A stretch of 64,000 bases of DNA from Nannocystis bainbridge. Lineage in GTDB: Bacteria; Myxococcota_A; Polyangia; Nannocystales; Nannocystaceae. This document shows, piece by piece, positions 9,033-22,813 of the stretch. The stretch lies in assembly GCF_028368995.1 (NCBI RefSeq), contig NZ_JAQNDL010000005.1, forward strand, positions 416,001-480,000, in the 5' to 3' direction. Made by a program: the position numbers and the translations under genes. The number at the start of each line of letters is the position of its first letter. Within the stretch, counting starts at the first letter, position 1. The notes under the pieces are model-generated. The model saw nothing but the letters and a program-made list of their open reading frames with translations, searched no databases and was not told the origin of the DNA.

Positions 9033-10520
9033 TCAGGCGAGCAGCGCGGACATGTCGAAGCGCTCGGGGAACTCGATGTCCATCGCCTGGGCGATCGCCG
9101 AGTAGATGTGGCCCTCGGAGCACTCGAGCTTCGGGTCGGCGTCGCCCGTGCTGCCGTCGAAGCCGTAGGTCTCACAGGTCGTGGGCTCGATGCCGCCGAA
9201 CACCCGGTTGCCCTTGAGCAGCGGCGAGACGATGAGCGTGCCGTTGTTGAGCGAGTGGCCGGTGCCCCACGACTCCGCGCCGGCCGGGCGCGTCTTGTCG
9301 CGGCCGAAATCGGTGGCGACGTAGATCATCGACCGGTCCCACATCTTGCCGAGCGCCGGATCGCCGAGGTAATCGAGCTGCTGCAGCAGGTCGACCAGCG
9401 CGTCGATGGTCCGGAGCACGTGGCCCCACATCAGGTACTGCGCGATCCGGTGATCCGAGTGCGAGAAGTCGAACGCGATCGGCGTGGTGATCAGCTTCTC
9501 GTTGCCGAACGTCGGCTCCTGGCGCAGGCCGATGGTGCTGACGCAGGACAGGCCGTAGTACGCCAGCAGCACGGACAGCGCCGCCTGCGACTCCCACGGG
9601 TCGACCAGCATGTTGGAGAACTTGCTGGCCAGCGTCGGCAGCAGCGGGCTCGACATGACGCCGTACTTGGGGTCGAGCAGCTCGGGCGGCAGCAGGGTCA
9701 GCCGGTCCATCAGGTTGGCGGACTCGAGGCGCGGCTGGACCTCGCGGCGGTTGGCGAGGAAGCGCTGGCGCCTGGGGCTGTCGGCGAACGTGCGGCCGAA
9801 CGTCGAGGCGTCGTCGAGCTGCTCGCGGACGCCGCGAGCGCGCTCCACCAGCCCGCGGCCGGGGGCCCCGACCACCCCCTTCACGCCGTCCATCGCCGCC
9901 GCGAAGCCGAGCGGCGAGGCGATGATCTCGGCCCGCGCGAACGCGGGCATCGAGGGGTCGACGCCGGGCTGGATGTACCCGTCGTTGGCCATGTTGCAGT
10001 TGGGGATGATCAGGTCCTCGCCGTGGCGGACCGCCATCGCCTCCATGATCGTGCGGCCGCGGTTGATCCCGGCGCCGGTCACCGATCGGTGCTGCCCGAC
10101 GCTGTGATTGACGCTGGAGCACTCCTGCGTCAGCACCGTCGTCCACGGGTGGTGCTTCTTGAGGAAGCCGTCGAGCGAGTAGGTCGTCTCGTAGAGCCCC
10201 GCGAGCAGGCCGACCGACTCGAAGTAGCCGGGGCAGCGCAGGTTGCTCCCGGTCGGGGTGATCACCTTGTCGTCCTCGTAGGCGTTCAAGGTGTCGGCGC
10301 GCGCGTCGTCGCCGACCTCGCTGCGGGTCACCGGCAGGAAGCTGTCGACGATGCTCGCCCCGCCCGTCGCGCACAGCACGAACAGCAGCTTGCGATCCTT
10401 GTCGGCGTTGCTGCCCGCGCGCTCTCCGGCGGCTCGCCCGAGGGCCGAGCCGAGCGCGGTCGTGCCCATCGCCCCGGCCATCGCCAGGAGCATGTTTCGT
10501 CGCCCGATTTTGCTGGTCAT
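9033..10520 (-). CDS. DUF1501-family Tat-exported protein
   Basis: ATG 10520 MTSKIGRRNMLL twin-arginine signal; GGASIVDSF, SVNH, FDFSH, IYVATDFGRD, GNRVFGG. Confidence 0.72.
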   Translation of the reverse strand: MTSKIGRRNMLLAMAGAMGTTALGSALGRAAGERAGSNADKDRKLLFVLCATGGASIVDSFLPVTRSEVGDDARADTLNAYEDDKVITPTGSNLRCPGYFESVGLLAGLYETTYSLDGFLKKHHPWTTVLTQECSSVNHSVGQHRSVTGAGINRGRTIMEAMAVRHGEDLIIPNCNMANDGYIQPGVDPSMPAFARAEIIASPLGFAAAMDGVKGVVGAPGRGLVERARGVREQLDDASTFGRTFADSPRRQRFLANRREVQPRLESANLMDRLTLLPPELLDPKYGVMSSPLLPTLASKFSNMLVDPWESQAALSVLLAYYGLSCVSTIGLRQEPTFGNEKLITTPIAFDFSHSDHRIAQYLMWGHVLRTIDALVDLLQQLDYLGDPALGKMWDRSMIYVATDFGRDKTRPAGAESWGTGHSLNNGTLIVSPLLKGNRVFGGIEPTTCETYGFDGSTGDADPKLECSEGHIYSAIAQAMDIEFPERFDMSALLA

Positions 10521-10539
10521 CGTCGCAGGCTCCCGTGGC

Positions 10540-11169
10540 TCAGAAGAACAAGAACTCGGTCGAGGTGCCGATCGCAAAGCAGGCGAGCAGCGCGAAGTCA
10601 TGGGCCGACACCGGCTTGCCGTCGTCGTCGACGGTGAGCTCGCCGAGCGTCGTCAGCTCGTGCGGCTCCGGGTCGCGCGACAACAGGCGGCGATACAGCG
10701 CCGTGACCGTCGCGGTGAACTCCTTGTCGTCGGGGGACGGCGCCGCCGCGGCGGCGAGGTCGAGGTCGACGAACACGGCCGGCGAGCCGCCGCGATCGAG
10801 CTCGGCCCGGTTGGCGCAGGCGCTCATGACCACGCGCTCGAGCACGATCGGCGTCGACACCAGAGTGTCGGGCAACGGCTCGTAGAGCCCGATGCGCAGC
10901 GGGTCGGCGCCGCCGAGCGAGATGTGGTGGATCTCGCGGGTGCACGAGCCGCGGCCCAGCTCGTTGCACACCCGGTCCTCGGGCAGCTCGAGCGCGCGCA
11001 TGAGGTCCTGCTGGAGCGCCGCGTTGCGCTTCCATTGCAGCTCGCCGCGCTGGGCGCGTTGCATCTCTTCGGCGCCGGTGTCCTCGGAGCCGCCGCCGCC
11101 GCCGTCGCGGCAACCCGCCACGAGCAGCAGCGCCGGCACGAGCGAATGAACGAGTTTATGCATGATCAT
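10540..11169 (-). CDS. Hypothetical lipoprotein (partner in the DUF1501 cluster)
   Basis: LLLVAGC lipobox; LYRRLLSRDP and CFAIGTSTEFLFF ends typical of these triads. Confidence 0.7.
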   Translation of the reverse strand: MIMHKLVHSLVPALLLVAGCRDGGGGGSEDTGAEEMQRAQRGELQWKRNAALQQDLMRALELPEDRVCNELGRGSCTREIHHISLGGADPLRIGLYEPLPDTLVSTPIVLERVVMSACANRAELDRGGSPAVFVDLDLAAAAAPSPDDKEFTATVTALYRRLLSRDPEPHELTTLGELTVDDDGKPVSAHDFALLACFAIGTSTEFLFF

Positions 11170-11182
11170 CGTCGTGCTCCTC

Positions 11183-12622
11183 TCACGGCATGCCGAAGGC
11201 GTCGGTGTCGACGAGGCGGTGAAGCAGGCGGTTGGCCGAGTAGCCGTCGGCCGGCATCGCGGTCCAGACCGCGTCGAACTCGTCGAGCTCGTCCGGGCGC
11301 GGCTCGTGCCCCACCGCGTAGATGAAGAACATGTGGGCCAGGTTGCGCTGGAACTCGCGCGACTGCGACATCACGGCCGCGAGGTCGACGAGGCTCTCGA
11401 CCGGCCGGTCGAGCACGACGAACCCCGGGTCCGCCTCGTCCCATCCGGGGATCCGCTCGGTCGGGCGCGTGGCCCGGTACTGCCCGGTGCGGTTGAGGTT
11501 CTTGAGGTCGATGCCCTCGTAGTACGAGAACGCGTACGACAGCGGGTCGAGCGTCGAGTGGCACTGCGCGCACGCCTGGGCGGCGACGCCCTTGTCGTCG
11601 ATGTCGAGGGGCTCGCCCTCGACCGGCCGGATGCCCTCGTTCTGCGACAAGTCGAGCCCGAGGTACTCGCGGTAGGCGTGCCCGGCCGCGACGCGCGGGA
11701 CGGCGGCGAACATGATGTTGATGAACAGGTTCCACTGGGTCGTCAGCATGCCCGCGCGGTGCTCCGGCGCGAGCAGCTGGCCCCCGCCGAACGCGCCCGA
11801 CGGGTTGGCGATCGTCCCGTCGACCTTGCGGAACGCGCCGGCGTCGTCGAGGCCGACGTGGTACTGCGCGGTCAGCAGCTCACGCGCGTCGCGGTCGCCG
11901 GACAGCACGTACTGCCACAGCCGGTAGTCCCACTCGTAGTCGGACAGCGTGATCTTGTAGCCGTTGATCGAGATGTCGGTGTCGACGCCGAAGGCCTGGA
12001 CCGGGCGGATCTTCGGGTGCGCCAGCGAGGCCAGCGCCTCGTCGATCCAGAACCTGGTCTCGAGGCACTCGGCGAGCGCGTCGTGGATCGCCTCGATCTG
12101 GGCCTCGCCGCCGAGCTCGGCGAACTCCGTGACCTCGTCGTACGACGGCGAGGCGCCGCAGAACAGCAGGCGGACCCGCTTGAAGGCGTAGCGCGGATCG
12201 TACTCGCCGATCGCGTAGCTCGGGTTGTCCAGCCCTTCGGGGGTCGGCCGCGGCATCCACTGCGACAGCGGATCGCCCGGGTCGGTCCCGAGCTCGATCT
12301 CCTCGCGGTTGCTCAGGCCGTCGCCGTCGCTGTCGTCGTCCTCGATGGCCGCGAGCGCCGACGCGAGGTTGTCGTCGAACGCCGCGCCCTTCAGCGCGCC
12401 GAGCACCGCCCCGCCGTACGCGTTCCAGTTGACCGGCTGGGTCGACAGGTGACACTTGCTGCACGTGATGCTGCGGCCCATGCACTCCGGCGCGTCGGCG
12501 TAGACGTCGCAGAAGGCGCGCGGGCCGGTCGGCCTGGCCTGGCTCTCGGGCGCGAACGAGGCGACCGCGAGGCCGCAACCGACGAGCGCCAGGTACCGCA
12601 GGACGCCGTATCGAGGGATCAT
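11183..12622 (-). CDS. Secreted c-type cytochrome-like protein (two CxxCH) with Ca-binding DxDxDG repeat
   Basis: ATG 12622 after a GGGGAGGGG RBS; signal peptide; CSKCH and CAQCH; DSDGDGLSNREEIELGTDPGDP. Confidence 0.72.
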   Translation of the reverse strand: MIPRYGVLRYLALVGCGLAVASFAPESQARPTGPRAFCDVYADAPECMGRSITCSKCHLSTQPVNWNAYGGAVLGALKGAAFDDNLASALAAIEDDDSDGDGLSNREEIELGTDPGDPLSQWMPRPTPEGLDNPSYAIGEYDPRYAFKRVRLLFCGASPSYDEVTEFAELGGEAQIEAIHDALAECLETRFWIDEALASLAHPKIRPVQAFGVDTDISINGYKITLSDYEWDYRLWQYVLSGDRDARELLTAQYHVGLDDAGAFRKVDGTIANPSGAFGGGQLLAPEHRAGMLTTQWNLFINIMFAAVPRVAAGHAYREYLGLDLSQNEGIRPVEGEPLDIDDKGVAAQACAQCHSTLDPLSYAFSYYEGIDLKNLNRTGQYRATRPTERIPGWDEADPGFVVLDRPVESLVDLAAVMSQSREFQRNLAHMFFIYAVGHEPRPDELDEFDAVWTAMPADGYSANRLLHRLVDTDAFGMP

Positions 12623-12831
12623 CGGTCCCCCTCCCCGAGCCGCGACGGCTCGGCGGGCGAACTCGGTCCAGGGCGGGGAGGCCGGGCCGTCTGCAGACGA
12701 ACGGGCGCGACGGCGAGCGACATGGCGGTCATTGGCGGCTCCTGTATCCTCGAAGGTAGAATGTTCCGCTGCAGCATACGAGCCCCACCGGCGCACCTGA
12801 CTGGTGCGTCCACGCAACAAGGACCTCGGCC

Positions 12832-13737
12832 ATGGAATCACTGCTCGCCAACCTCCCCACCCTGATGGCGCTCGTACGGCACGGCTCCGTGACCGCGGCC
12901 GCGGCAGAGCTCGGTGTCCCCCGCAGCACGGTGAGCCGCCGACTCGCCCGTCTCGAGCAGGAACTGGGGGTCGTGCTGGCGGAAAGGACCACCCGGACGC
13001 TCAAGCTGACCGACGCCGCGCGCGAGCTGGGCGGGGAATCGGCCGCGCTGCTGACGAAGCTCCGGACCACCGCCGAGGCCATCGTCGCCGAGGCCGGCAA
13101 GGTGAAGGGGCGGCTGCGCATCGCCCTCGCGCCGGGGTTGGGCGGGCCGTTCATCACGCCGCTCATCGCCAGCTTTCAGCGGCGGCACCCGGACGTCGTG
13201 GTCGAGCTGCTCGTCACCGAGCGGCAGCCGCACCTGCTCGACGACCAGATCGACGCGCTGGCCGTGACGACGCTCGACCCCGCGTTGCCGTGGAGCCGCC
13301 GGTCCCTCGGCAAGACCCCGGCGATCGCGGTCGCCAGCCCTCGCTATCTCCGCGATCGCCCGGCGCCGACCGACGCCGCGGCCCTCGAGGATCACGTCGT
13401 GCTCTGGTACGGCCTCAACCGCGGCGGCACGTTCACCTGGCCGCGGCTGCGGGGCGCGCCGCTCCCGGTGCGCCCGGCGTTCGTGACCAACGACCTGCCC
13501 ACGCTGCGAGAGATGGCGCTCGAGGGCGTGGGCGTCGCGGTGCTGCCCATGCACCTCATCGTCGACGAGCTGGCCCGGGGAGCGCTCGTCCACGTGCTGC
13601 CGAAGCAGATCGGCGCCACCATCGAGTTCTTCGCGCTGTTCGTCCCCGAGCGCGGCAAGAGCCCGGTTCTGCGCGCCCTCTTCGACGAGGTCTCGCGCTT
13701 CTCGGCCAAGCTCGCGGCCAGCCGCAGCAAGGCGTGA
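12832..13737 (+). CDS. LysR family transcriptional regulator
   Basis: GSVTAAAAELGVPRSTVSRRLARLEQELGVVLAERTTRTLKLT helix-turn-helix; divergent from the upstream operon. Confidence 0.95.
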   Translation: MESLLANLPTLMALVRHGSVTAAAAELGVPRSTVSRRLARLEQELGVVLAERTTRTLKLTDAARELGGESAALLTKLRTTAEAIVAEAGKVKGRLRIALAPGLGGPFITPLIASFQRRHPDVVVELLVTERQPHLLDDQIDALAVTTLDPALPWSRRSLGKTPAIAVASPRYLRDRPAPTDAAALEDHVVLWYGLNRGGTFTWPRLRGAPLPVRPAFVTNDLPTLREMALEGVGVAVLPMHLIVDELARGALVHVLPKQIGATIEFFALFVPERGKSPVLRALFDEVSRFSAKLAASRSKA

Positions 13738-13785
13738 CGCGGGAGCTGATCACGAAGGCGCGGCGCTCGCCGGCCGCGTCGATGA

Positions 13786-14403
13786 CTACATGTCTCTTGG
13801 GACATGTACGAACGTCGACCCCGGTAGTCGGCCCTGCACGCCTTCCGGCAGTCGCGGAAGGATTTCCACCACATCCGCCATCACCCGGCCGCTCTTCTCC
13901 AGCAACTGGTTGCACCTGCCGAAGAGCGGCTGCCGGAACTCCACCGCCAGGGCCTCGCTCATCAGCGCGTCTGACCAGGTCTGAAAGAAGATTGCAGGCC
14001 GGCTGGTGGAGGCTACCTGCATGTCCGCCAGCAGCCGCCCCAGCGGTACGTGCCCCTGCACCAGCAGCTCCCGCCCCCGACTCTCGAAGCAGTTCAGGTG
14101 GATGCGGATGGCCGCCAGCTCCGCGGGGCGCAGGTCCACCGCGCCCACCAGCAGCACCTGGCGCCGCAGCTCGTCCTTGCCCAGGCTGGTGTGGAGCACC
14201 TTCAGCGTCAGCCGCTGGTCGAAGAAGTCTTCCAGCGTCGGCGTCATCGTGCCCTCATGCACCAGCAGCTGTCGGTACGGTTGCGGCATGTCCTCCGGCT
14301 CGATGAAGGACAGGCGCGGCAAAGGCAGCCCCCGAGCGGCGTAGAGCACCTCCAGCGGCTCGAACGCGCTGGGATGTGAATCGGTGAACTTTCTGCCAGA
14401 CAT
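13786..14403 (-). CDS. Chorismate pyruvate-lyase (UbiC/UTRA-fold)-like protein
   Basis: ATG 14403; LLVHEGTMTPTLE, RRQVLL, PLGRLL, FGRCNQ, VVEILP pattern; same operon as a DAHP synthase. Confidence 0.65.
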   Translation of the reverse strand: MSGRKFTDSHPSAFEPLEVLYAARGLPLPRLSFIEPEDMPQPYRQLLVHEGTMTPTLEDFFDQRLTLKVLHTSLGKDELRRQVLLVGAVDLRPAELAAIRIHLNCFESRGRELLVQGHVPLGRLLADMQVASTSRPAIFFQTWSDALMSEALAVEFRQPLFGRCNQLLEKSGRVMADVVEILPRLPEGVQGRLPGSTFVHVPRDM

Positions 14404-14426
14404 GTGGATCTCCCTCGCGCTTGGGG

Positions 14427-15229
14427 TCACCGGCCGCATCGCTCAGTCTCCGTGGGCTCGAGCGCCGCTCGAGTCGCGCTTCGTTGCGCGAATCGCCACG
14501 AGACGAGTCGGCGCCCGATCTCGTGCAGAAGCTCGGAGCGAGCGCTGTCCAAGAAGAAGTGCCTCCCCGGAAACACCTGCAGGTCGAACGGTCCGGACGT
14601 GTACTGCCGCCATGCCTTGAGCCCCTCATCCGTCACCTCCGGATCCTCGATGCCGCTGAACACGGTGAGGGGCGCTGCCAGGCCGCCTCTCACCGGTCCA
14701 CGCGCCCGCGTATCGACGAGCGCGAAGTCGGCACGCAAAATGGGAATGAACAGCTCGATAATCGCGTTGTTCGCGAGCACCTCCTCCGGCACGCCGTTCC
14801 ATCGCCGGAGCTCCACCAGGAGCTCCTCTCGCGAGACGTGCTGGAGCGAGCGGCGCTCGATATGTGGCGCCTGCGCTCCAGAGACGAAGACATGGACCGG
14901 GGAACGCTCGGCGACGGTTGCGAGCCGCGACGCCAGCTCGATGGCGATGCTGGCGCCCATGCTGTGGCCGAAGATCGCAAATGGGCGGTCGATGGCGGCG
15001 GCGCACGCCCCCGCCATCACGTCCACGAGCGACGACATGCGCCGGCAAGGCTCCTCTGCCATGCGCTGCCCGTGGCCCGGCAGCTCGATTGCCACCACCT
15101 CGATGTTATCGGGGAGCGCGGCTCCCCATTCGCGGAAGGCACTCGCATCTCCCCCTGCGTAGGGCAGGCAGAGCAGCCGCAGGTCACAGTCGGGACTTGG
15201 ACGACGTTTGGAAACCAGGAGGAGCTCAT
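14427..15229 (-). CDS. Type II thioesterase (GrsT-like), with an apparent 1-nt frameshift near 15210
   Basis: LRLLCLPYAGG, FGHSMGA, LRADF, FPGRHFF; ATG 15229 (MSSSWF) is out of frame with the body. Confidence 0.85.
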
Positions 15230-15253
15230 GGGACTCTCGCTCACGGGTGATGG

Positions 15254-18200
15254 CTATCGCTTCCGGTTCTTGACGTCCGCGAGCGCCCTGAGCGCCTGGT
15301 CCACCTCTGCGGTAGTGTTAGCGGCCGTGATCGAGAAGCGGAGGACCCCCTTGTTGTAGGGAACGAGCGGATAGACGGCGGGGGTAATCAGAACGTCGTG
15401 CTCCCACAGGATGCGGCACGCCTCGACCACGTCGGCGTTGGAGCCGACCTCGACCGCGACGAGGGGAAAGTAGTTGTTCTCATTGACTGCGAAGCCGAGA
15501 GCCCGCGCTCCGCTCACCAGCTTGCGCGTCAGCTCGAGCAGCTGCGCACGCCATCGACCGCCCTCATCCCGATTCAAACGAACGCCCGCGATGGCGCTCG
15601 CCAGGCTTGCCACGCAGGTCGGTCCCGAGTACCCAAAAGTAGTGGTCTCGTTGGAGAGCCGCGCCTTCGTCGCCCTGTCCGGAACGGTCATGAACGCGCC
15701 ATAGGACGAGAACGCCTTCGACAGTCCAGCGACGTAGGTGATGTTGTCCTCGGCGTAGCGCAGCCCGTGGAACCTGACGAGCCCGTTTCCCTTTTGCCCG
15801 TATGGCATCCCGGGATTCGGATTCTCACCGATGACACCGAAACCGTGCGCGTCGTCGATGTAGATATGCGCGTTGTAGGTCTTGGCCAGCCGCACATACG
15901 CCGGGAGATCGGAGAACGTGCCTGACATCGAGTACACGCCGTCGATGACGATCAGCTTCGTCCGGGAGTGCGGGAACCGGACCAGCTGTCGCTCCAACGC
16001 TTGGAGGTCGTTGTGCGTGTAGTCCACGAGCTCGGCGCCGTCGACGGTGGCCCGGCAGCAGGCCTCGTACATGGTGTTGTGCGCAGCCACGTCCTTGAAG
16101 ATGACCCCATCCCTGCCGACCAGCTTGGGGATGATGCCGAGGTGCAGGAGCGAGAGAGACGGGAAGACGAGCACCTCGGGCGAACCAACGAGCTGCGGCA
16201 GCTCGGACTCCAGCTCCTCGTAAATCCTCGGGGTCGCGACCTGCCGGCTCCAGCTCGGGTGCACGCCCCACTTAGCGACCGCCGGCGCGATCGCTTCCAT
16301 GACCTTCGGGTGCAGATCCAGTCCCAGGTAGTTGCAGGACGCGAAGTCAGACCTCCACCGCCCCCCGGCGAGCACCTGCCGGCCGCGCTGTTCCTCGACG
16401 AGCACCAGTCGCTGAGGGACCAGGGGCGTGATGTCCTCGACCAGGTCGGGTCCCGGCACTCCGTCCGCGAGATGGCGCGCCAACTCAGCGGGGGTCGGGT
16501 GGGCCCAGGCAACGACCGGCGAAACCTCCCTCGCCAGGAGCCGCCGCAGGTCCTGGGCAAGGCCGACGGCGAGCAGCGAAGTCATCCCGTAGTCGGAGAA
16601 GCGCCGCTGAGCGTCCACCGGCTGGCCGTCGAGCTCGAGGTTTCGCGCGAGCCAACCGGCGATCCAGCCCTCGTGCTCTTCGACCGACTGCGGCTGCTTT
16701 GCGAATACCTCCTCATCCGAGGTGGCCGGGACCTTCGCACTCTGCCGGCGGTCGAGGGCTCGCTGATTCTGGATTGCTGCGATGGATTGCAGCTTCTTGT
16801 CGCGAAGCACGCGCTTGAGAAGCTTTCCGCTGCCGCTCTTGGGCAGCGCGTCGACGAACTCGACGTCGCTCGGAACCTTGAAGTCGGCCATGTTCTTGCG
16901 ACAAAACGCGAGGATGTCGTTCACCGTGGCCCTGGAGTCGGGACGCAGCACGATCGCGGCGCATACCTTCTCCTCCGAGATCGAATCTGGGATGCCGTAG
17001 ACCGCGACCTCCGCGATGTCTCGATTCTGATACAGGATGTTCTCGACTTCGGAAGGGAAGACCTTCATCCCCGCGACGTTGACCATGTCCTTGATGCGGT
17101 CGACGATGTACAAGCAGCCGTCGTCATCCATGCGGCCGATATCGCCCGAGAGGAACCAGCCATCGTGCAGCTTCTCGGCGGTCTCTGCGGGACGATTCCA
17201 GTAGCCCAGCATGACGCTCGGTCCGCGGATCGCAATCTCACCCAGGTCGCCCGGCTTGCCCGCTTCGCCGTCTGAGCCGACCACGCGCACTTCGACCCGG
17301 GCGATCGTGCGTCCCACCGACCCGGGCTTGCTCCGGGGGTCATGGTTGAAGCACGCCATGCAGGTTTCGGTGAGACCATAGCCTTCGTTGATGGCGAAAC
17401 CGTACTTCTCGAGCCACTTGCTTCCGAGCTCGACCGGGAGCTTCGCGCCCGCGGAGACGGCGCGCCGAATCGAGATCAGTTGCTTGGGCGCGGACTGTTC
17501 GAAGAGCATCAAGTACAGCGTCGGCACGCCGAAGAAGAGCGTGATCGCGTGTTCTTCGATGGACCGAAGCACGGACTCGGGCTCGAACTGACGATGCAGC
17601 ACCAGCGTAGCTCCGGCCTCGAAGCATGGGTTGAGCACCGCGGTCTGAGGGAAGCTGAAGAACAGGGGCAGACAAAGGAGGACGCGGTCCTCGTGCTGCA
17701 CGGACAGCGTGCCGACCGCCGTTTGACTGCTGACGATGACATTGTGGTGCGAGAGGAGCGCGCCCTTGGGAAAGCCGGTCGTCCCGGATGTGTAGTGAAT
17801 GACGGCCGGGTGGTCGGCTGTCACTTCGGCGGCGATCGCCTCAGGCGACTCGGCGAGCGACAGGGCGGCGAACGTGTCTGTGCTGGCTGGAGCACCGTCG
17901 ACGAGAACAACGCGGTCCAGGTGGGGCAGGGCGGACCGCATGGCATCCGCGGCCGGAAGGACGCCTCGCAACGTGCCCGAGGTGATCAGAACCTTGCTGC
18001 CGCTATCCTTGAGGATAAACTGCGTCTCCTCCGACTTCAGCGCGGCGTTGATGGTCACCGCGATGGCGCCGAGCTTCAGTGTTCCGAGGAATGCAAACAC
18101 GAACTCGGGCTGGTTGGGGAGCCACAGTGCCACGCGGTCGCCGCGGTGGATGCCGAGCCTGGCCAGAGCGTTCGCTGCGCGATTGCTCAGCTCGTTGAGC

Positions 18201-18292
18201 TGCCGGTAGGAAAACTTCGCACCTTCGAAGATCAGAGCGTCGTGGTCTGAGTAGAGCTTTGCGGCGCGTTCCACATGTTGTACGAGATTCAT
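15254..18292 (-). CDS. Tri-domain acyl/aryl adenylation enzyme - ACP - PLP alpha-oxoamine synthase (SxtA4-like)
   Basis: YTSGTTGFPKG, GYGLTE, SGDIG, KSGSGK (ANL family); YGMTSLL (ACP Ser); DFASCNYLGL, DGVYSMSG, DDAHGFG, GLSKAF (AOS with PLP Lys). Confidence 0.92.
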   Translation of the reverse strand: MNLVQHVERAAKLYSDHDALIFEGAKFSYRQLNELSNRAANALARLGIHRGDRVALWLPNQPEFVFAFLGTLKLGAIAVTINAALKSEETQFILKDSGSKVLITSGTLRGVLPAADAMRSALPHLDRVVLVDGAPASTDTFAALSLAESPEAIAAEVTADHPAVIHYTSGTTGFPKGALLSHHNVIVSSQTAVGTLSVQHEDRVLLCLPLFFSFPQTAVLNPCFEAGATLVLHRQFEPESVLRSIEEHAITLFFGVPTLYLMLFEQSAPKQLISIRRAVSAGAKLPVELGSKWLEKYGFAINEGYGLTETCMACFNHDPRSKPGSVGRTIARVEVRVVGSDGEAGKPGDLGEIAIRGPSVMLGYWNRPAETAEKLHDGWFLSGDIGRMDDDGCLYIVDRIKDMVNVAGMKVFPSEVENILYQNRDIAEVAVYGIPDSISEEKVCAAIVLRPDSRATVNDILAFCRKNMADFKVPSDVEFVDALPKSGSGKLLKRVLRDKKLQSIAAIQNQRALDRRQSAKVPATSDEEVFAKQPQSVEEHEGWIAGWLARNLELDGQPVDAQRRFSDYGMTSLLAVGLAQDLRRLLAREVSPVVAWAHPTPAELARHLADGVPGPDLVEDITPLVPQRLVLVEEQRGRQVLAGGRWRSDFASCNYLGLDLHPKVMEAIAPAVAKWGVHPSWSRQVATPRIYEELESELPQLVGSPEVLVFPSLSLLHLGIIPKLVGRDGVIFKDVAAHNTMYEACCRATVDGAELVDYTHNDLQALERQLVRFPHSRTKLIVIDGVYSMSGTFSDLPAYVRLAKTYNAHIYIDDAHGFGVIGENPNPGMPYGQKGNGLVRFHGLRYAEDNITYVAGLSKAFSSYGAFMTVPDRATKARLSNETTTFGYSGPTCVASLASAIAGVRLNRDEGGRWRAQLLELTRKLVSGARALGFAVNENNYFPLVAVEVGSNADVVEACRILWEHDVLITPAVYPLVPYNKGVLRFSITAANTTAEVDQALRALADVKNRKR

Positions 18293-18353
18293 TTTCGATA
18301 TTCCTTTCGATTCGAGCGTTGTTCAGCGCGCGTGAGGCGCGGGCGCTGAAGGA

Positions 18354-19136
18354 TCAGAGCTGAGCAACGAATTCGAGCTCGGTCTGTTGCTTCGTGTTGA
18401 TGACCTTCGTGTGGACCGAACCGTCGTGAACATTAGCGACGGGTGCCGCGTAGGTCAGCACGTATCCGGCAGCCTCGCCTGCCCAAATTGACAGGTCTGC
18501 ATGAAGTCGAGCGACCTTGGCTGGGCTGTCCACGCGAAGCGCGAGGTGCCATATGCTGTCGCCGCGGAAGGCCTGCGCAGTCATCTCACCCCCAGGCACG
18601 AAAGCTCGGCTCCGGGCGGCGTCCATGGGGCAGTTTGAGGCGGAACGGTGAATGTCGAAGAACTCCAGCATCAGATCCCGTTCACCCCGGCGGATCCAGA
18701 CGCGCATGATCTCCGCATACGCGGCCACCCGCTGCTGAAACGAGTCGGACGCCGGGAAACGGTGCAACTTGCTCAGTCGGAGCACATCGCCGCCCCTGCG
18801 GCGCTCCGCCGCGTTGAGCGCCGCGAGCCACAGCGGAATGCTCGTCATCAGCATATCCAGCGGCTGGGAGACCTCGAATCCGACGTGACCGACATCGGTC
18901 GCGCTCGTCGCCTCGAGGGCCGCGCGCGCCATCGCTACACTGCCGTCAAAAAATTCACCAATCACCCGGTCAGCACGCAGGTGCTGCGTCGCCGACAGCG
19001 CAGACGTGAATTTTGCCCAGTCTTTTTGGAGGAGAAGCAGAAGGTCTCGCGTGGTCGAGACGCTCTTGCAGGCCAAGATCGCCTCGTGGAGCGAGAGCAT
19101 GTGCTCCCCATGCGCATGGCATTCATGAAGATGCAT
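18354..19136 (-). CDS. Hypothetical protein, probable VOC/glyoxalase-fold metalloenzyme
   Basis: Paired motifs GHVGFEV...LEFF and WHLALRV...ELEFV give an H/E/H/E ligand pattern; start uncertain. Confidence 0.5.
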   Translation of the reverse strand: MHLHECHAHGEHMLSLHEAILACKSVSTTRDLLLLLQKDWAKFTSALSATQHLRADRVIGEFFDGSVAMARAALEATSATDVGHVGFEVSQPLDMLMTSIPLWLAALNAAERRRGGDVLRLSKLHRFPASDSFQQRVAAYAEIMRVWIRRGERDLMLEFFDIHRSASNCPMDAARSRAFVPGGEMTAQAFRGDSIWHLALRVDSPAKVARLHADLSIWAGEAAGYVLTYAAPVANVHDGSVHTKVINTKQQTELEFVAQL

Positions 19137-19221
19137 CGTTTACGTCCGTGGAGAATGTTATTGCCTTCGTCGCCGGCATCCCGCTCGGGGCTGCCCGGCA
19201 CTTCGGCTGGCTCCCTCAGGG

Positions 19222-20235
<1,014 letters not shown>

Positions 20236-20463
20236 GGTTCCGACCAGGTGTTACGTGCGAGTTGAAAGTTCGGGAAGACTAGGAGAGACGCGATAGGAGA
20301 CAAGGGGTAGAGACGGATGAGCAACGTCACTGTCGCGCCGGGAGGCTCCGCAGATTCACGGCGGGGAATGCCTCGCAGGCCCGCAGAACGACCTCTGCGT
20401 CGAAGCAAACTGCGGACGTGTACCCACGCCCGCGGAACTTCTGGCAAAGAGCCGCAATAGGAT

Positions 20464-20598
<135 letters not shown>

Positions 20599-21149
20599 CA
20601 GATGAAGCGTTTGGTCTCCGGGAGGCCGAGCAAGATGCAACCGGGAGGCCGAACGCGACTTTTACTGAAGTCATCTGGACGTTCTGGCACTGCCGCCGCC
20701 GAATCCGCGCAGCATGACAAAGGTTCAGAGACCCCTGTCTGTCACCACGACGGCGCTATCAGGAGTTTGTCCTCGTCGGCGTTGGGCGCTCGTCGGTACG
20801 GTGGGGGGCAGACGATTGGATGCGAATCAGCGCTGAGCACGACATGGTCATCTCCGCAGCGCGACCGATCCGTCATCGAAATCGGCGTCCCCGTTCGCCC
20901 GTCGACCAGGCACCCGCCCCTGGCAACCAGTCTTCGTAAGAAGAGGCCCCCTCCGAGCGGTTCGCGCAACGTCCCACGACCCGGGACCGACGCCGTCCCT
21001 GGATCTCCGGAAGATCCCCGTCTGTCCGCCGGTCGGATGGTCCGAGGGGAGGCCGGCGATCTGGAAGCCGCGATGTGCGTTGCCCGCGTTGTCCAGCCCG
21101 CCGACGGGGCGAAGATTGTCGGTAGGTGGCGCCGAGGGCGAGCGCCTCG

Positions 21150-21317
21150 TCAGTCGCAGGAGTCGCAGACGCCGTCGACGTGGCAGCCGCATTGCGTGGC
21201 GCCGGTCTCCGGGGCCATTCCGCCCTTCACCTGGCACAGCTCGTCCGCGCCGAGCGTGCGAAACTCGAACTTGGGCAGCTTCTCCTCGTCGTCTCTCTGC
21301 TTCGTTGTCTTAAGCAT
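21150..21317 (-). CDS. Double-glycine-leader peptide precursor (bacteriocin/RiPP-like), 55 aa
   Basis: Translates MLKTTKQRDDEEKLPKFEFRTLGADELCQVKGG|MAPETGATQCGCHVDGVCDSCD*; leader matches LxxxELxxVxGG; alternative in-frame ATG at 21329; too short for the ORF track. Confidence 0.75.
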   Translation of the reverse strand: MLKTTKQRDDEEKLPKFEFRTLGADELCQVKGGMAPETGATQCGCHVDGVCDSCD

Positions 21318-22142
21318 GGTCCAATCCATTGAGTTCAGTTCAGTTCAATTTAATGTAAGTCGGTGCGAGGGCTCGTTCGCCCGGTCCCGCGCACGATCGC
21401 CGCTACCCGGAGGCGCGGCGGCCGTGGCGGGGCCGCTTGCGACGGTGTGCCTCTGACTCGGCACCGTCGCCGCGGGTTTCGCGGACGCCACCGAAATGAT
21501 TCACCAGCACATCACCGCCGAACCCGCGACCGTAGCGACGCACCATGACGCACACGTCATGGCGAACCGCCACGGAGCACCACCGCACCGCGGTGCACGA
21601 GGGCGACGGGATGTCGGCTGGAAGGCGCATCAATAAGCTCTCTCAGGCGAAAGCAAGTGAGTAAGGAAGTCAAGAATGCCCCGGAAGGACGCGCCGGCCC
21701 GAGCGTCTACAGTGACGACCAGGCCGGTCGAACTCTTGTAGCAGCGGCACCTGACCTTGCCAATAGTTTCGCCAGGATTTTTCGCGTGATCGCAGTGAAC
21801 GGGTCCGCGCAGACCCGTGAATTGCGTTCATGCGACGGCGCTTTTGAAAAGACGCCAATCGACGTCCGCCAGCGGTCCTATGCATGGAGAAACTCCGGCC
21901 GCGCCCGAACTATGCCCAATCATTTTTGCCCGTCCTCCTTACATTCGCCGCGCGACACGGTGCGCGCGTTCATCGGAGCCGCTCAGGTGTGACCACCTCG
22001 ACCGCCGACTTCGCCGCGCTGGCTCACTCGCCGAACCTCCCTGCCGCTGAAACCCGCCGGACGACCCCGGCGACGGGCGGCCTCGATCGCTCGTAGAAGC
22101 GCGCCAGGGTCGGTCTGCGGCCCGCCCGAGCGACCACGACGC

Positions 22143-22606
22143 TTGAACTCAGCTTCGCCGGCCTGGCTGCCGCGAGCGAGGCCGACGGCGAACGCGCGAG
22201 TGCGCAGCCGCGGGGCTCGTGCACCTGCGCGCGGCACGGCTGGAGGAGGCGCGGGCCGACATCTCGCGTGCACACGAGCTGTGGCCGACCCGGCCGGACG
22301 TCGCGCTGCTCGCGGCCGAAATGGCCGAGCGCGACGGCGACCTCCGCCGCGCCGAGCAGATCCTCGCGCGCGCGATCGTGAAGGAGGGCGCGTGGGCACG
22401 GGCGTGCCAGGACCGGTTGCTCGAGCTCATGCGCGCACGCGGCGGGAAAAAGGTCGATCTCGATCGCACGATCGCGCGCTCGACCGCGAGTGGAAGGACG
22501 AACGGATTACAGAGGTGCTCGCCGCGCGGGCCGCTGCGCCGAAGCCCCTCGCGCCGTTCGAGCTCGACCTGCGCGGCGGCGGCCGAATCACGAGCGACTC
22601 GCTGCG
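22143..22606 (+). pseudogene. Fragment of a TPR + TlpA/redoxin-type protein, frameshifted and truncated
   Basis: TPR-like helices (LAAEMAERDGDLRRAEQILARA) continue in another frame as ALDREWK...APFELDLRGGGRITSDSLR, then similarity stops before any CxxC. Confidence 0.45.
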
Positions 22607-22813
22607 TCGTGCGGTCCGCCTACCGGCCGATTTTCCCCTGCGGTACCGGGGCAATGCAATCCGGCAGATTATACCGGAGCATTACCTTCCGGTGGGGCGA
22701 TGCCCCAACTCCACACGAGCGCGCCCAGATCGGCGAGATACCGAACCTCACGGCGTCATTCGTCCGCGATGAGCACCGGGACGAACAGCGCCCGCACGCG
22801 CGTCACAAGTCGG

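Follow-up and report, generated by a model that had tools for sequence, protein, structure and literature searches.

The myxobacterium Nannocystis bainbridge carries a gene for a tridomain synthase in which an ANL domain, an acyl carrier protein (ACP) and an α-oxoamine synthase (AOS) domain are fused in one open reading frame (ORF). This gene (P0001; 15254..18292, minus strand, 1012 aa) sits in a five-gene accessory operon whose product is probably a 4-hydroxybenzoyl (aryl) α-aminoketone. Positions are those of the window, meaning the whole 64,000-nucleotide stretch that was analyzed (NCBI RefSeq assembly GCF_028368995.1, contig NZ_JAQNDL010000005.1, positions 416,001 to 480,000 of the forward strand). 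By uniting an aryl-type ANL loader with an ACP-AOS cassette, P0001 is a new architectural variant of a widespread, uncharacterized family that includes SxtA4, the AOS domain of SxtA, the first enzyme in saxitoxin biosynthesis, and the gene does not imply a saxitoxin pathway. A first-pass annotation of the stretch had assigned the AOS domain to the SxtA4 clade. It is tempting to read strong sxtA4 similarity as a mark of saxitoxin chemistry; the similarity is not diagnostic, because the motifs behind it run through a very large, almost wholly uncharacterized family of chain-releasing AOS domains.

Translation and Pfam searches place all three domains in the single 1012-aa ORF, with AMP-binding at residues 8-365, AMP-binding_C at 415-490, PP-binding at 544-608 and Aminotran_1_2 at 650-1004. 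The ANL domain (16823..18271, minus) is of the acyl/aryl-CoA-ligase type, with an ordinary AMP-binding_C and no FAAL character (Pfam E 6.5e-96), and it retains the core motifs YTSGTTGFPKGA, GYGLTE, SGDIG and PKSGSGK, which we take to correspond to TSGTTGxPKG, GYGxTE, GDxG and the C-terminal catalytic Lys. The carrier protein domain (16469..16663, minus; PP-binding, 2.4e-11) has its Ser572 within GMTSLL, and T571-S572-L573 is unchanged in the two nearest relatives, P0002 and P0003. The AOS domain (15281..16345, minus), assigned by Pfam, BLASTP, trees and alignment, shows the hallmarks of its class: the stacking His (H738), the Asp/His pair (D813/H816), the PLP lysine (K859, codon 15716-15718) and the carboxylate-binding Arg (R985), which align with those of ThAOS and are invariant in the family. 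P0001 is most closely related to P0002 (1007 aa), which has an identical domain order, with 66% identity overall and 72% in the AOS part; P0003, a partial protein, is the third with an ordinary ANL loader.

The first-pass annotation had already described an ANL-ACP-AOS fusion with a loader unlike the MT/GNAT module of SxtA, and Pfam upholds this. It had further listed ten motif blocks as almost co-linear with SxtA, all of which were located in P0001 between residues 649 and 993: DFASCNYLGLDLHPKV (649-664), KWGVHPSWSR (674-683), IYEELE (690-695), YEACC (742-746), DLPAYVRLAKTYNA (795-808), GENPNPGMPYGQKGNG (822-837), AEDNITYVAGLSKAFSSY (847-864), VASLASAIAG (894-903), LITPA (968-972) and LRFSITAANT (984-993). 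The co-linearity is confirmed. The AOS domain shares 226 of 383 residues (59%) with the SxtA of Microseira wollei (P0037, taken as SxtA on the name given by its source) across a single gap (BLASTP, E 4e-156). The claim that it lies far nearer SxtA4 than BioF, SPT or KBL is equally sound, as the three other AOS paralogues of the host genome are only 27-31% identical to it. Likewise, the best matches among solved structures of the AOS/KBL/SPT/BioF group (ThAOS, SPT, KBL and BioF) score no better than E 7.7e-36 to 1e-26, and the solved chains matched by the domain include no SxtA.

Where the blocks fail is as markers of an SxtA4 clade. The AOS region was searched against 5.8 billion proteins at lengths of 556-1771 residues, with 8000 scored and the best 120 listed; 386 of the 8000 matched at E ≤ 1e-3. 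By our own sorting of the Pfam columns of the 120 listed proteins, query included, 35 are KS-AT(-DH)-ACP-AOS polyketide synthases (PKS), 28 are KR/ER-ACP-AOS pieces of such PKS, 34 are FAAL-type ANL-ACP-AOS proteins, 12 join SxtA-like N-terminal domains to an AOS, one is an acyl-CoA-dehydrogenase-ACP-AOS fusion and seven are ACP-AOS fragments. Only three, namely P0001, P0002 and P0003, have an ordinary ANL domain before ACP-AOS. Identity to the P0001 AOS domain spans 51-72% across the listed proteins, and the named SxtA proteins (59%) are neither top nor distinctive, with the PKS-AOS proteins equal or higher (60-62%) and the FAAL-ACP-AOS proteins at 52-59%. Among shorter or standalone proteins, 1876 of 8000 scored matched at E ≤ 1e-3, the best 120 at 45-59% identity. 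Finally, a pattern scan of species-representative genomes returned at least 599 stretches, 597 of the 599 being confirmed, from Streptomyces, Archangium, Crenothrix, cyanobacteria, CPR bacteria and others.

Whatever their architecture, the 216 family members aligned conserve the same motifs at 98-100%, and these motifs are absent from the three classical paralogues of the host. They comprise D649-F-A-S-x-N-Y-L-G-x-D659; W675-G-x-H-P-S-W-x-R683; H738; D813-D-A-H-G; the inserted loop G822..P825..P830-Y-G..G-x-G837; and Y853, S858-K859, S862-S863, S889-G-P, R915, R985, T989 and N992. P0001 carries every one, including the G..P..P-Y-G..G-x-G insertion and S-K-x-x-S-S. The SxtA-specificity of the ten blocks was therefore rejected: being invariant or nearly so throughout, they mark the large family and not an "SxtA4 clade".

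The trees were built from 216 of 229 proteins spanning query position ≤75 to ≥415, 13 partial sequences having been dropped. FastTree was run on 219 rows (the 216 members plus the three paralogues of the host), and IQ-TREE (LG+G4) on 69 rows, of which 66 were picked to represent every FastTree clade and three were the same paralogues. The two topologies agree, and the support values given here are ultrafast bootstrap/SH-aLRT from IQ-TREE. The branch dividing the 66 family rows from the classical paralogues received 100/100, with an outgroup that is small and has long branches. P0001 pairs with P0002 (100/97), is joined next by P0003 (95/90) and then by the KS-AT-DH-ACP-AOS proteins P0004 and P0005 (100/99), and this group is nested in a 34-row clade of PKS/KR-type AOS domains (99/95). 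Together with the acyl-CoA-dehydrogenase fusion P0040, the five cyanobacterial SxtA rows make up a separate clade (100/99), sister to the cyanobacterial FAAL-ACP-AOS proteins in a joint 12-row clade (99/96).

Forcing the P0001 trio together with the five SxtA rows cost 123 lnL units, and this arrangement was rejected by the approximately unbiased (AU) test (p-AU 2.15e-11). The test was run after the tree was known, the grouping itself being the prior hypothesis of the first-pass annotation, and the small, long-branched outgroup affects the root and not this comparison. BLASTP and phylogeny, the check that the annotation had proposed, support its reading in part: the domain does belong to the family that contains SxtA, apart from classical AOS enzymes, and it is separate from the SxtA clade. 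On these sequence comparisons, the AOS domain of P0001 is a member of the carrier-protein-linked AOS family, in its PKS-associated subclade, and no orthologue of SxtA.

Six further proteins (P0015, P0024, P0032, P0049, P0050 and P0062) combine SxtA N-terminal Pfams (PF23526, PF23525 and PF23589) with ACP-AOS, and in both trees their AOS domains branch within the PKS clade, apart from SxtA. The SxtA-like domain order thus also occurs outside the SxtA lineage, and this second set indicates that loaders have been exchanged more than once on the AOS cassette. Genes next to five close PKS-AOS loci encode, among other products, methyltransferases, an amine oxidase, a nonribosomal peptide synthetase, a sulfotransferase and P-type ATPases, with nothing among them indicating a given amino acid. 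At one locus (L087:9850-12516), the end of a KS-AT-DH-ACP-AOS gene with a 60% identical AOS domain is overlapped by the gene right after it, which encodes a flavin amine oxidase; this arrangement fits further processing of the aminoketone's amine.

The five genes of the operon follow one another in the same direction on the minus strand, and adjacent genes either overlap or are separated by 24-85 bases. The first (19222..20235) encodes a type I-beta 3-deoxy-7-phosphoheptulonate (DAHP) synthase with an N-terminal ferredoxin-like domain (Pfam DAHP_synth_1, 8.6e-79, and DAHP_snth_FXD; NCBIfam PRK08673, 479.9 bits against a cut-off of 335). The second (18354..19136) encodes a 260-aa protein, with no Pfam or NCBIfam match, in which an N-terminal helical bundle precedes a probable VOC-fold domain (glyoxalase/dioxygenase/epimerase). 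Its family is rare: of 1.84 billion representatives, 62 matched at E ≤ 1e-3. H84, E158, H197 and E255, candidate metal ligands, are invariant in 33 sequences. An AF2 model (pLDDT 92.3) matched L-DOPA dioxygenase, glyoxalase I, methylmalonyl-CoA epimerase and HPPD in Foldseek (E 3e-5 to 1e-3; TM by target 0.5-0.58), and an Atlas search likewise gave a VOC lead, making this protein a candidate VOC-fold metalloenzyme on its modeled structure. One relative, P0375 (715 aa), carries the domain C-terminally as a fusion.

Downstream of the synthase lies a type II thioesterase gene (14427..15229, minus; Pfam Thioesterase 1.7e-33, over profile positions 30-223 only). Its frame runs upstream without a stop into the end of the AOS gene, and translation from 15098 would leave out the LLCLPYAGG region. 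In a different frame, the ATG at 15229 would give a plausible thioesterase N-terminus (MSSSWFPNVVQVP). The stretch 15090-15260 (minus) looks like the site of a one-base indel, either assembly error or pseudogene, or of a rare start codon. The last gene (13786..14439, minus) encodes a 217-aa protein of the chorismate-lyase fold (UbiC/Rv2949c-like, DUF98). The Atlas linked it to Chor_lyase/Rv2949c-like clusters (features 0.93-0.97, TM 0.63-0.81), JGI names its homologues "chorismate-pyruvate lyase", and its profile matches only PDB 2nwi, a DUF98 structure (E 5.5e-4). In Foldseek, its AF2 model (pLDDT 88.7) matched 2nwi (1e-7) and E. coli chorismate lyase (1fw9/1jd3, 3e-4, 20-21% identity). R93, R175, E70 and E192 are invariant residues. 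Judging from fold and remote homology, the protein is probably a 4-hydroxybenzoate synthase.

The operon is a low-GC accessory island. GC content falls to 0.58-0.68 across approximately 13.5-22 kb of the window, relative to about 0.71 around it. Positions 10000-13745 are syntenic at 86-92% in five same-genus genomes, and 13746-21100 has no syntenic match in any of the five (5/5), only short matches at the level of paralogues. Positions 21101-22607 match multi-copy repeats, at several separate places per same-genus genome and at 75-95% identity. An AOS family member at E ≤ 1e-80 occurs in three of 73 genomes of the order and in none of 10 same-genus genomes, and no tRNA gene was found at the island borders. 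The segment 21163-21331 is repeated at least four times, tandem-like, in each of three genomes (G035, G037 and G041), a repeat family at the island border. A microsatellite of 16 copies of (AGTGAGTA) with 96% matches occupies 20467-20596, where the GC content of the island is at its lowest (0.58); the DAHP synthase gene starts approximately 230 bases downstream of it.

Which acid the synthase loads is best approached through the ANL domain and its relatives. Over its N-terminal 610 aa (ANL and ACP), P0001 shares only 25% identity with the FAAL-type loader of a Nostoc FAAL-ACP-AOS protein, and the AOS domains of the same two proteins are 58% identical, indicating separate histories of loader and AOS. 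After FadD13, the best solved relatives of the ANL domain are feruloyl-CoA synthetase, oxalyl-CoA synthetases, MenE and 4-coumarate-CoA ligases (4CL). A metagenome scan with the trio alignment selected ANL patterns only and yielded 80 loci with ANL relatives and no AOS fusions. In two of these 80 fetched loci (L010 and L012), the ANL genes (48-49% identical) lie in operons in the order DAHP synthase, aromatic amino-acid lyase (PAL/TAL), ANL ligase, thiamine diphosphate (ThDP) enzyme and KAS III-like protein (L010:1711-13334 and L012:6996-19736). Additional genes encode a bicupin and a flavin halogenase in L010, and an NAD epimerase-type protein and a tyrosinase in L012; both operons look like an undescribed aryl-derived pathway. 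Three other loci (L007, L011 and L015) encode ANL-ACP didomains, followed in L007 by a KS-AT-DH synthase. These contexts suggest that the nearest fetched loader relatives work on shikimate-derived aryl acids or start polyketides, and together with the DAHP synthase and the lyase-fold neighbor they make 4-hydroxybenzoate the most economical guess for the acid.

In the proposed pathway, P0001 would act as a single-module, polyketide-like synthase. The DAHP synthase would raise shikimate flux and the lyase-fold protein would convert chorismate to 4-hydroxybenzoate, which the ANL domain may then adenylate, this acid or a close aryl acid, and load onto the in-cis carrier protein. In a decarboxylating condensation, the PLP-dependent AOS domain would join the acyl-S-carrier thioester to an amino acid and release the α-aminoketone, predicted as a 2-amino-1-(4-hydroxyphenyl)alkan-1-one, and the VOC enzyme may further modify this aminoketone.

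As to the amino acid consumed in this condensation, a review (PMC12371840) gives arginine and propionyl-ACP as the substrates of SxtA, and the first-pass annotation had proposed that P0001 may likewise use arginine to give a guanidino-ketone, which here would be aryl-CO-CH(NH2)-(CH2)3-guanidine. The 59% co-linear identity speaks for that proposal, and so does the gate. According to work on ThAOS (PMC11906848), V79, supplied by the other subunit, gates the amino-acid side chain, its equivalents being S102 in SPT and a Thr in ALAS. A comparison of the wild-type and V79A chains placed the equivalent immediately before a conserved Arg, at position 682, which is Ser in P0001 and Thr in 7/7 SxtA rows and in 171/216 family rows. 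The loop reads H-P-S-W-(T/S)-R throughout the family, so that the change at 682 is conservative, and the acids D649 and D659, which are fixed across the family and which classical AOS enzymes lack, could serve a basic side chain.

Against arginine stands the position of P0001 outside the SxtA clade, together with 13 clade-variable positions beside the catalytic motifs at which it departs from the fixed SxtA residue, compared by alignment position: 682 (T in SxtA, S in P0001), 684 (L/F, Q), 717 (Q, H), 733 (G, K), 739-741 (R-C-I, N-T-M), 791-792 (A-D, G-T), 843 (D, G), 884 (W, T), 887 (I, G) and 893 (P, C). Two of these changes replace the SxtA-fixed acids D792 and D843 with T and G, and the set as a whole leaves arginine use by P0001 unsupported. 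Moreover, no arginine-related or amidinotransferase gene adjoins the synthase or was found in the 90.5%-complete genome, and literature searches found no characterized family member, substrate or described product besides SxtA, nor any SxtA specificity residues. We regard L-arginine as an unlikely substrate. The invariant gate loop and the family-only D649 and D659 could also mean that the whole SxtA-type family, P0001 included, takes L-arginine or another basic amino acid, a broader idea that we hold to be improbable. If it were true, the operon product would be an unprecedented 4-hydroxyphenyl guanidino-aminoketone, and hundreds of PKS-AOS and FAAL-ACP-AOS genes would represent a hidden class of guanidino-ketones, of which the first intermediate of saxitoxin would be the sole known example.

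Several observations weigh against the aryl-aminoketone operon proposed here. The top solved relative of the ANL domain is FadD13, its top NCBIfam is NF004837, "long-chain-fatty-acid--CoA ligase" (456 bits, under the cut-off of 476), and the benzoate-CoA ligase family scores it at 284 bits against a cut-off of 375. With fatty-acyl-CoA ligases as best matches, an aliphatic acid is also possible: the ANL domain could load a medium- or long-chain acid to give a lipid-like aminoketone, as inferred for FAAL-ACP-AOS proteins, which are common among the tridomains (34 of the 120 listed), and the DAHP synthase and lyase-fold protein would serve otherwise, for example by supplying an aromatic amino acid as AOS co-substrate. 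This would be a rather surprising outcome given the low identity to the FAAL-type loader, the lack of a FAAL-type C-terminal Pfam in the ANL part of P0001, the PAL/TAL and DAHP synthase genes adjoining the nearest fetched ANL relatives, and an operon containing no fatty-acid genes. On the supply side, the 217-aa protein has no Pfam match at E ≤ 10, its lyase assignment rests on fold and remote homology (UbiC identity 20-21%), and the same fold occurs in GntR UTRA ligand-binding domains, which its model also matched in Foldseek. Homologues of the lyase, VOC, DAHP synthase or thioesterase genes lie within 10 kb in 0 of 80 AOS-family genome loci, leaving the gene set with no second confirming example, and a contig scan of genomes with the whole P0001 protein found no homologous cluster. 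No promoter-like site was found, and terminator-like sites (6, with 4.5 expected) were not above chance. Finally, three-frame translation shows no ATG, GTG or TTG in the thioesterase frame before the GTG at 15098, so the operon may be decaying. The island would then be a non-functional remnant of a transferred cluster, a reading with which the missing canonical start before the oxyanion-region motif, the out-of-frame upstream ATG, the uniqueness of the island within the genus and the multi-copy repeats on its right side all agree. It seems very unlikely, however, as P0001 and the other three genes have undisrupted reading frames and retain every catalytic motif, and the thioesterase problem is explained equally well by one wrong base in the assembly or by a rare start codon.

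The remaining claims of the first-pass annotation concern saxitoxin itself. It had stated that no other sxt-like genes are in the window and that saxitoxin production is not implied, and this holds: the neighbors are the DAHP synthase, VOC-fold, thioesterase and lyase-fold genes, and no sxt-type family occurs among the neighbors searched against Pfam (8.8-25 kb). PF02274, which we take to be the arginine-deiminase/amidinotransferase family, has no match in the 90.5%-complete host genome. The suggested relevance to the specificity of sxtA4 markers was not seen with one published dinoflagellate primer pair, which has no site in the window at ≤3 mismatches. The bearing on the origin of SxtA is small, because non-cyanobacterial relatives have long been in print. 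Passages in two papers of 2009-2011 (PMC2684587, PMC3097229) describe actinobacterial aminotransferases as relatives of SxtA4 and liken the N-terminal part of SxtA to a Myxococcus PKS.

A compact, self-contained five-gene operon with a plausible supply of aryl acid makes P0001 a convenient system for studying amino-acid use in the family outside SxtA, and the synthase is a possible biocatalyst for aryl α-aminoketones. The operon also holds a member of a rare protein family with a probable VOC fold.

Among known systems, SxtA shares with P0001 the ACP-AOS cassette, all family-specific motifs and the catalytic residues, and the same chemistry would be expected of P0001: acyl-S-ACP plus amino acid giving α-aminoketone and CO2. 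The two differ in their loaders, ANL in P0001 and MT-GNAT in SxtA, in the subclade of their AOS domains and at the 13 clade-variable sites near the catalytic motifs. With ThAOS, KBL, SPT and AONS, P0001 has the fold and catalytic set in common, the equivalents of His738, Asp813, His816, Lys859 and Arg985 aligning. The P0001 family departs from these classical enzymes in 10 inserted residues (G822-G832), in a loop reading H-P-S-W where they have G-S-G-x, and in S790, which replaces the Asp of SMDGD. BioWF, a natural BioW-BioF fusion (PMC9544090), likewise joins an acid-activating enzyme to an AOS and makes an aminoketone; it differs in having no carrier protein, in that BioW is not an ANL enzyme, and in its BioF-type AOS, which is only ~30% identical to the P0001 domain. 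The uncharacterized PKS-AOS and FAAL-ACP-AOS proteins of Myxococcota, methanotrophs, cyanobacteria and actinomycetes belong to the same AOS family (52-62% identity) and likewise place the AOS behind a carrier protein as the chain-releasing terminal domain, whereas P0001 is set apart by its ordinary acyl/aryl-CoA-ligase-type ANL domain, as in only three of the 120 proteins listed. For the loading half, a parallel is offered by FadD22 and Rv2949c of M. tuberculosis, where a chorismate pyruvate-lyase makes p-hydroxybenzoate and an ANL-ACP didomain loads it. Both systems set a UbiC/Rv2949c-fold protein beside an ANL-ACP loader, the similarity of the 217-aa protein to Rv2949c being at the level of fold or Pfam lead only. 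In M. tuberculosis, a PKS extends the loaded acid, whereas the predicted next step in P0001 is its AOS-catalyzed condensation with an amino acid.

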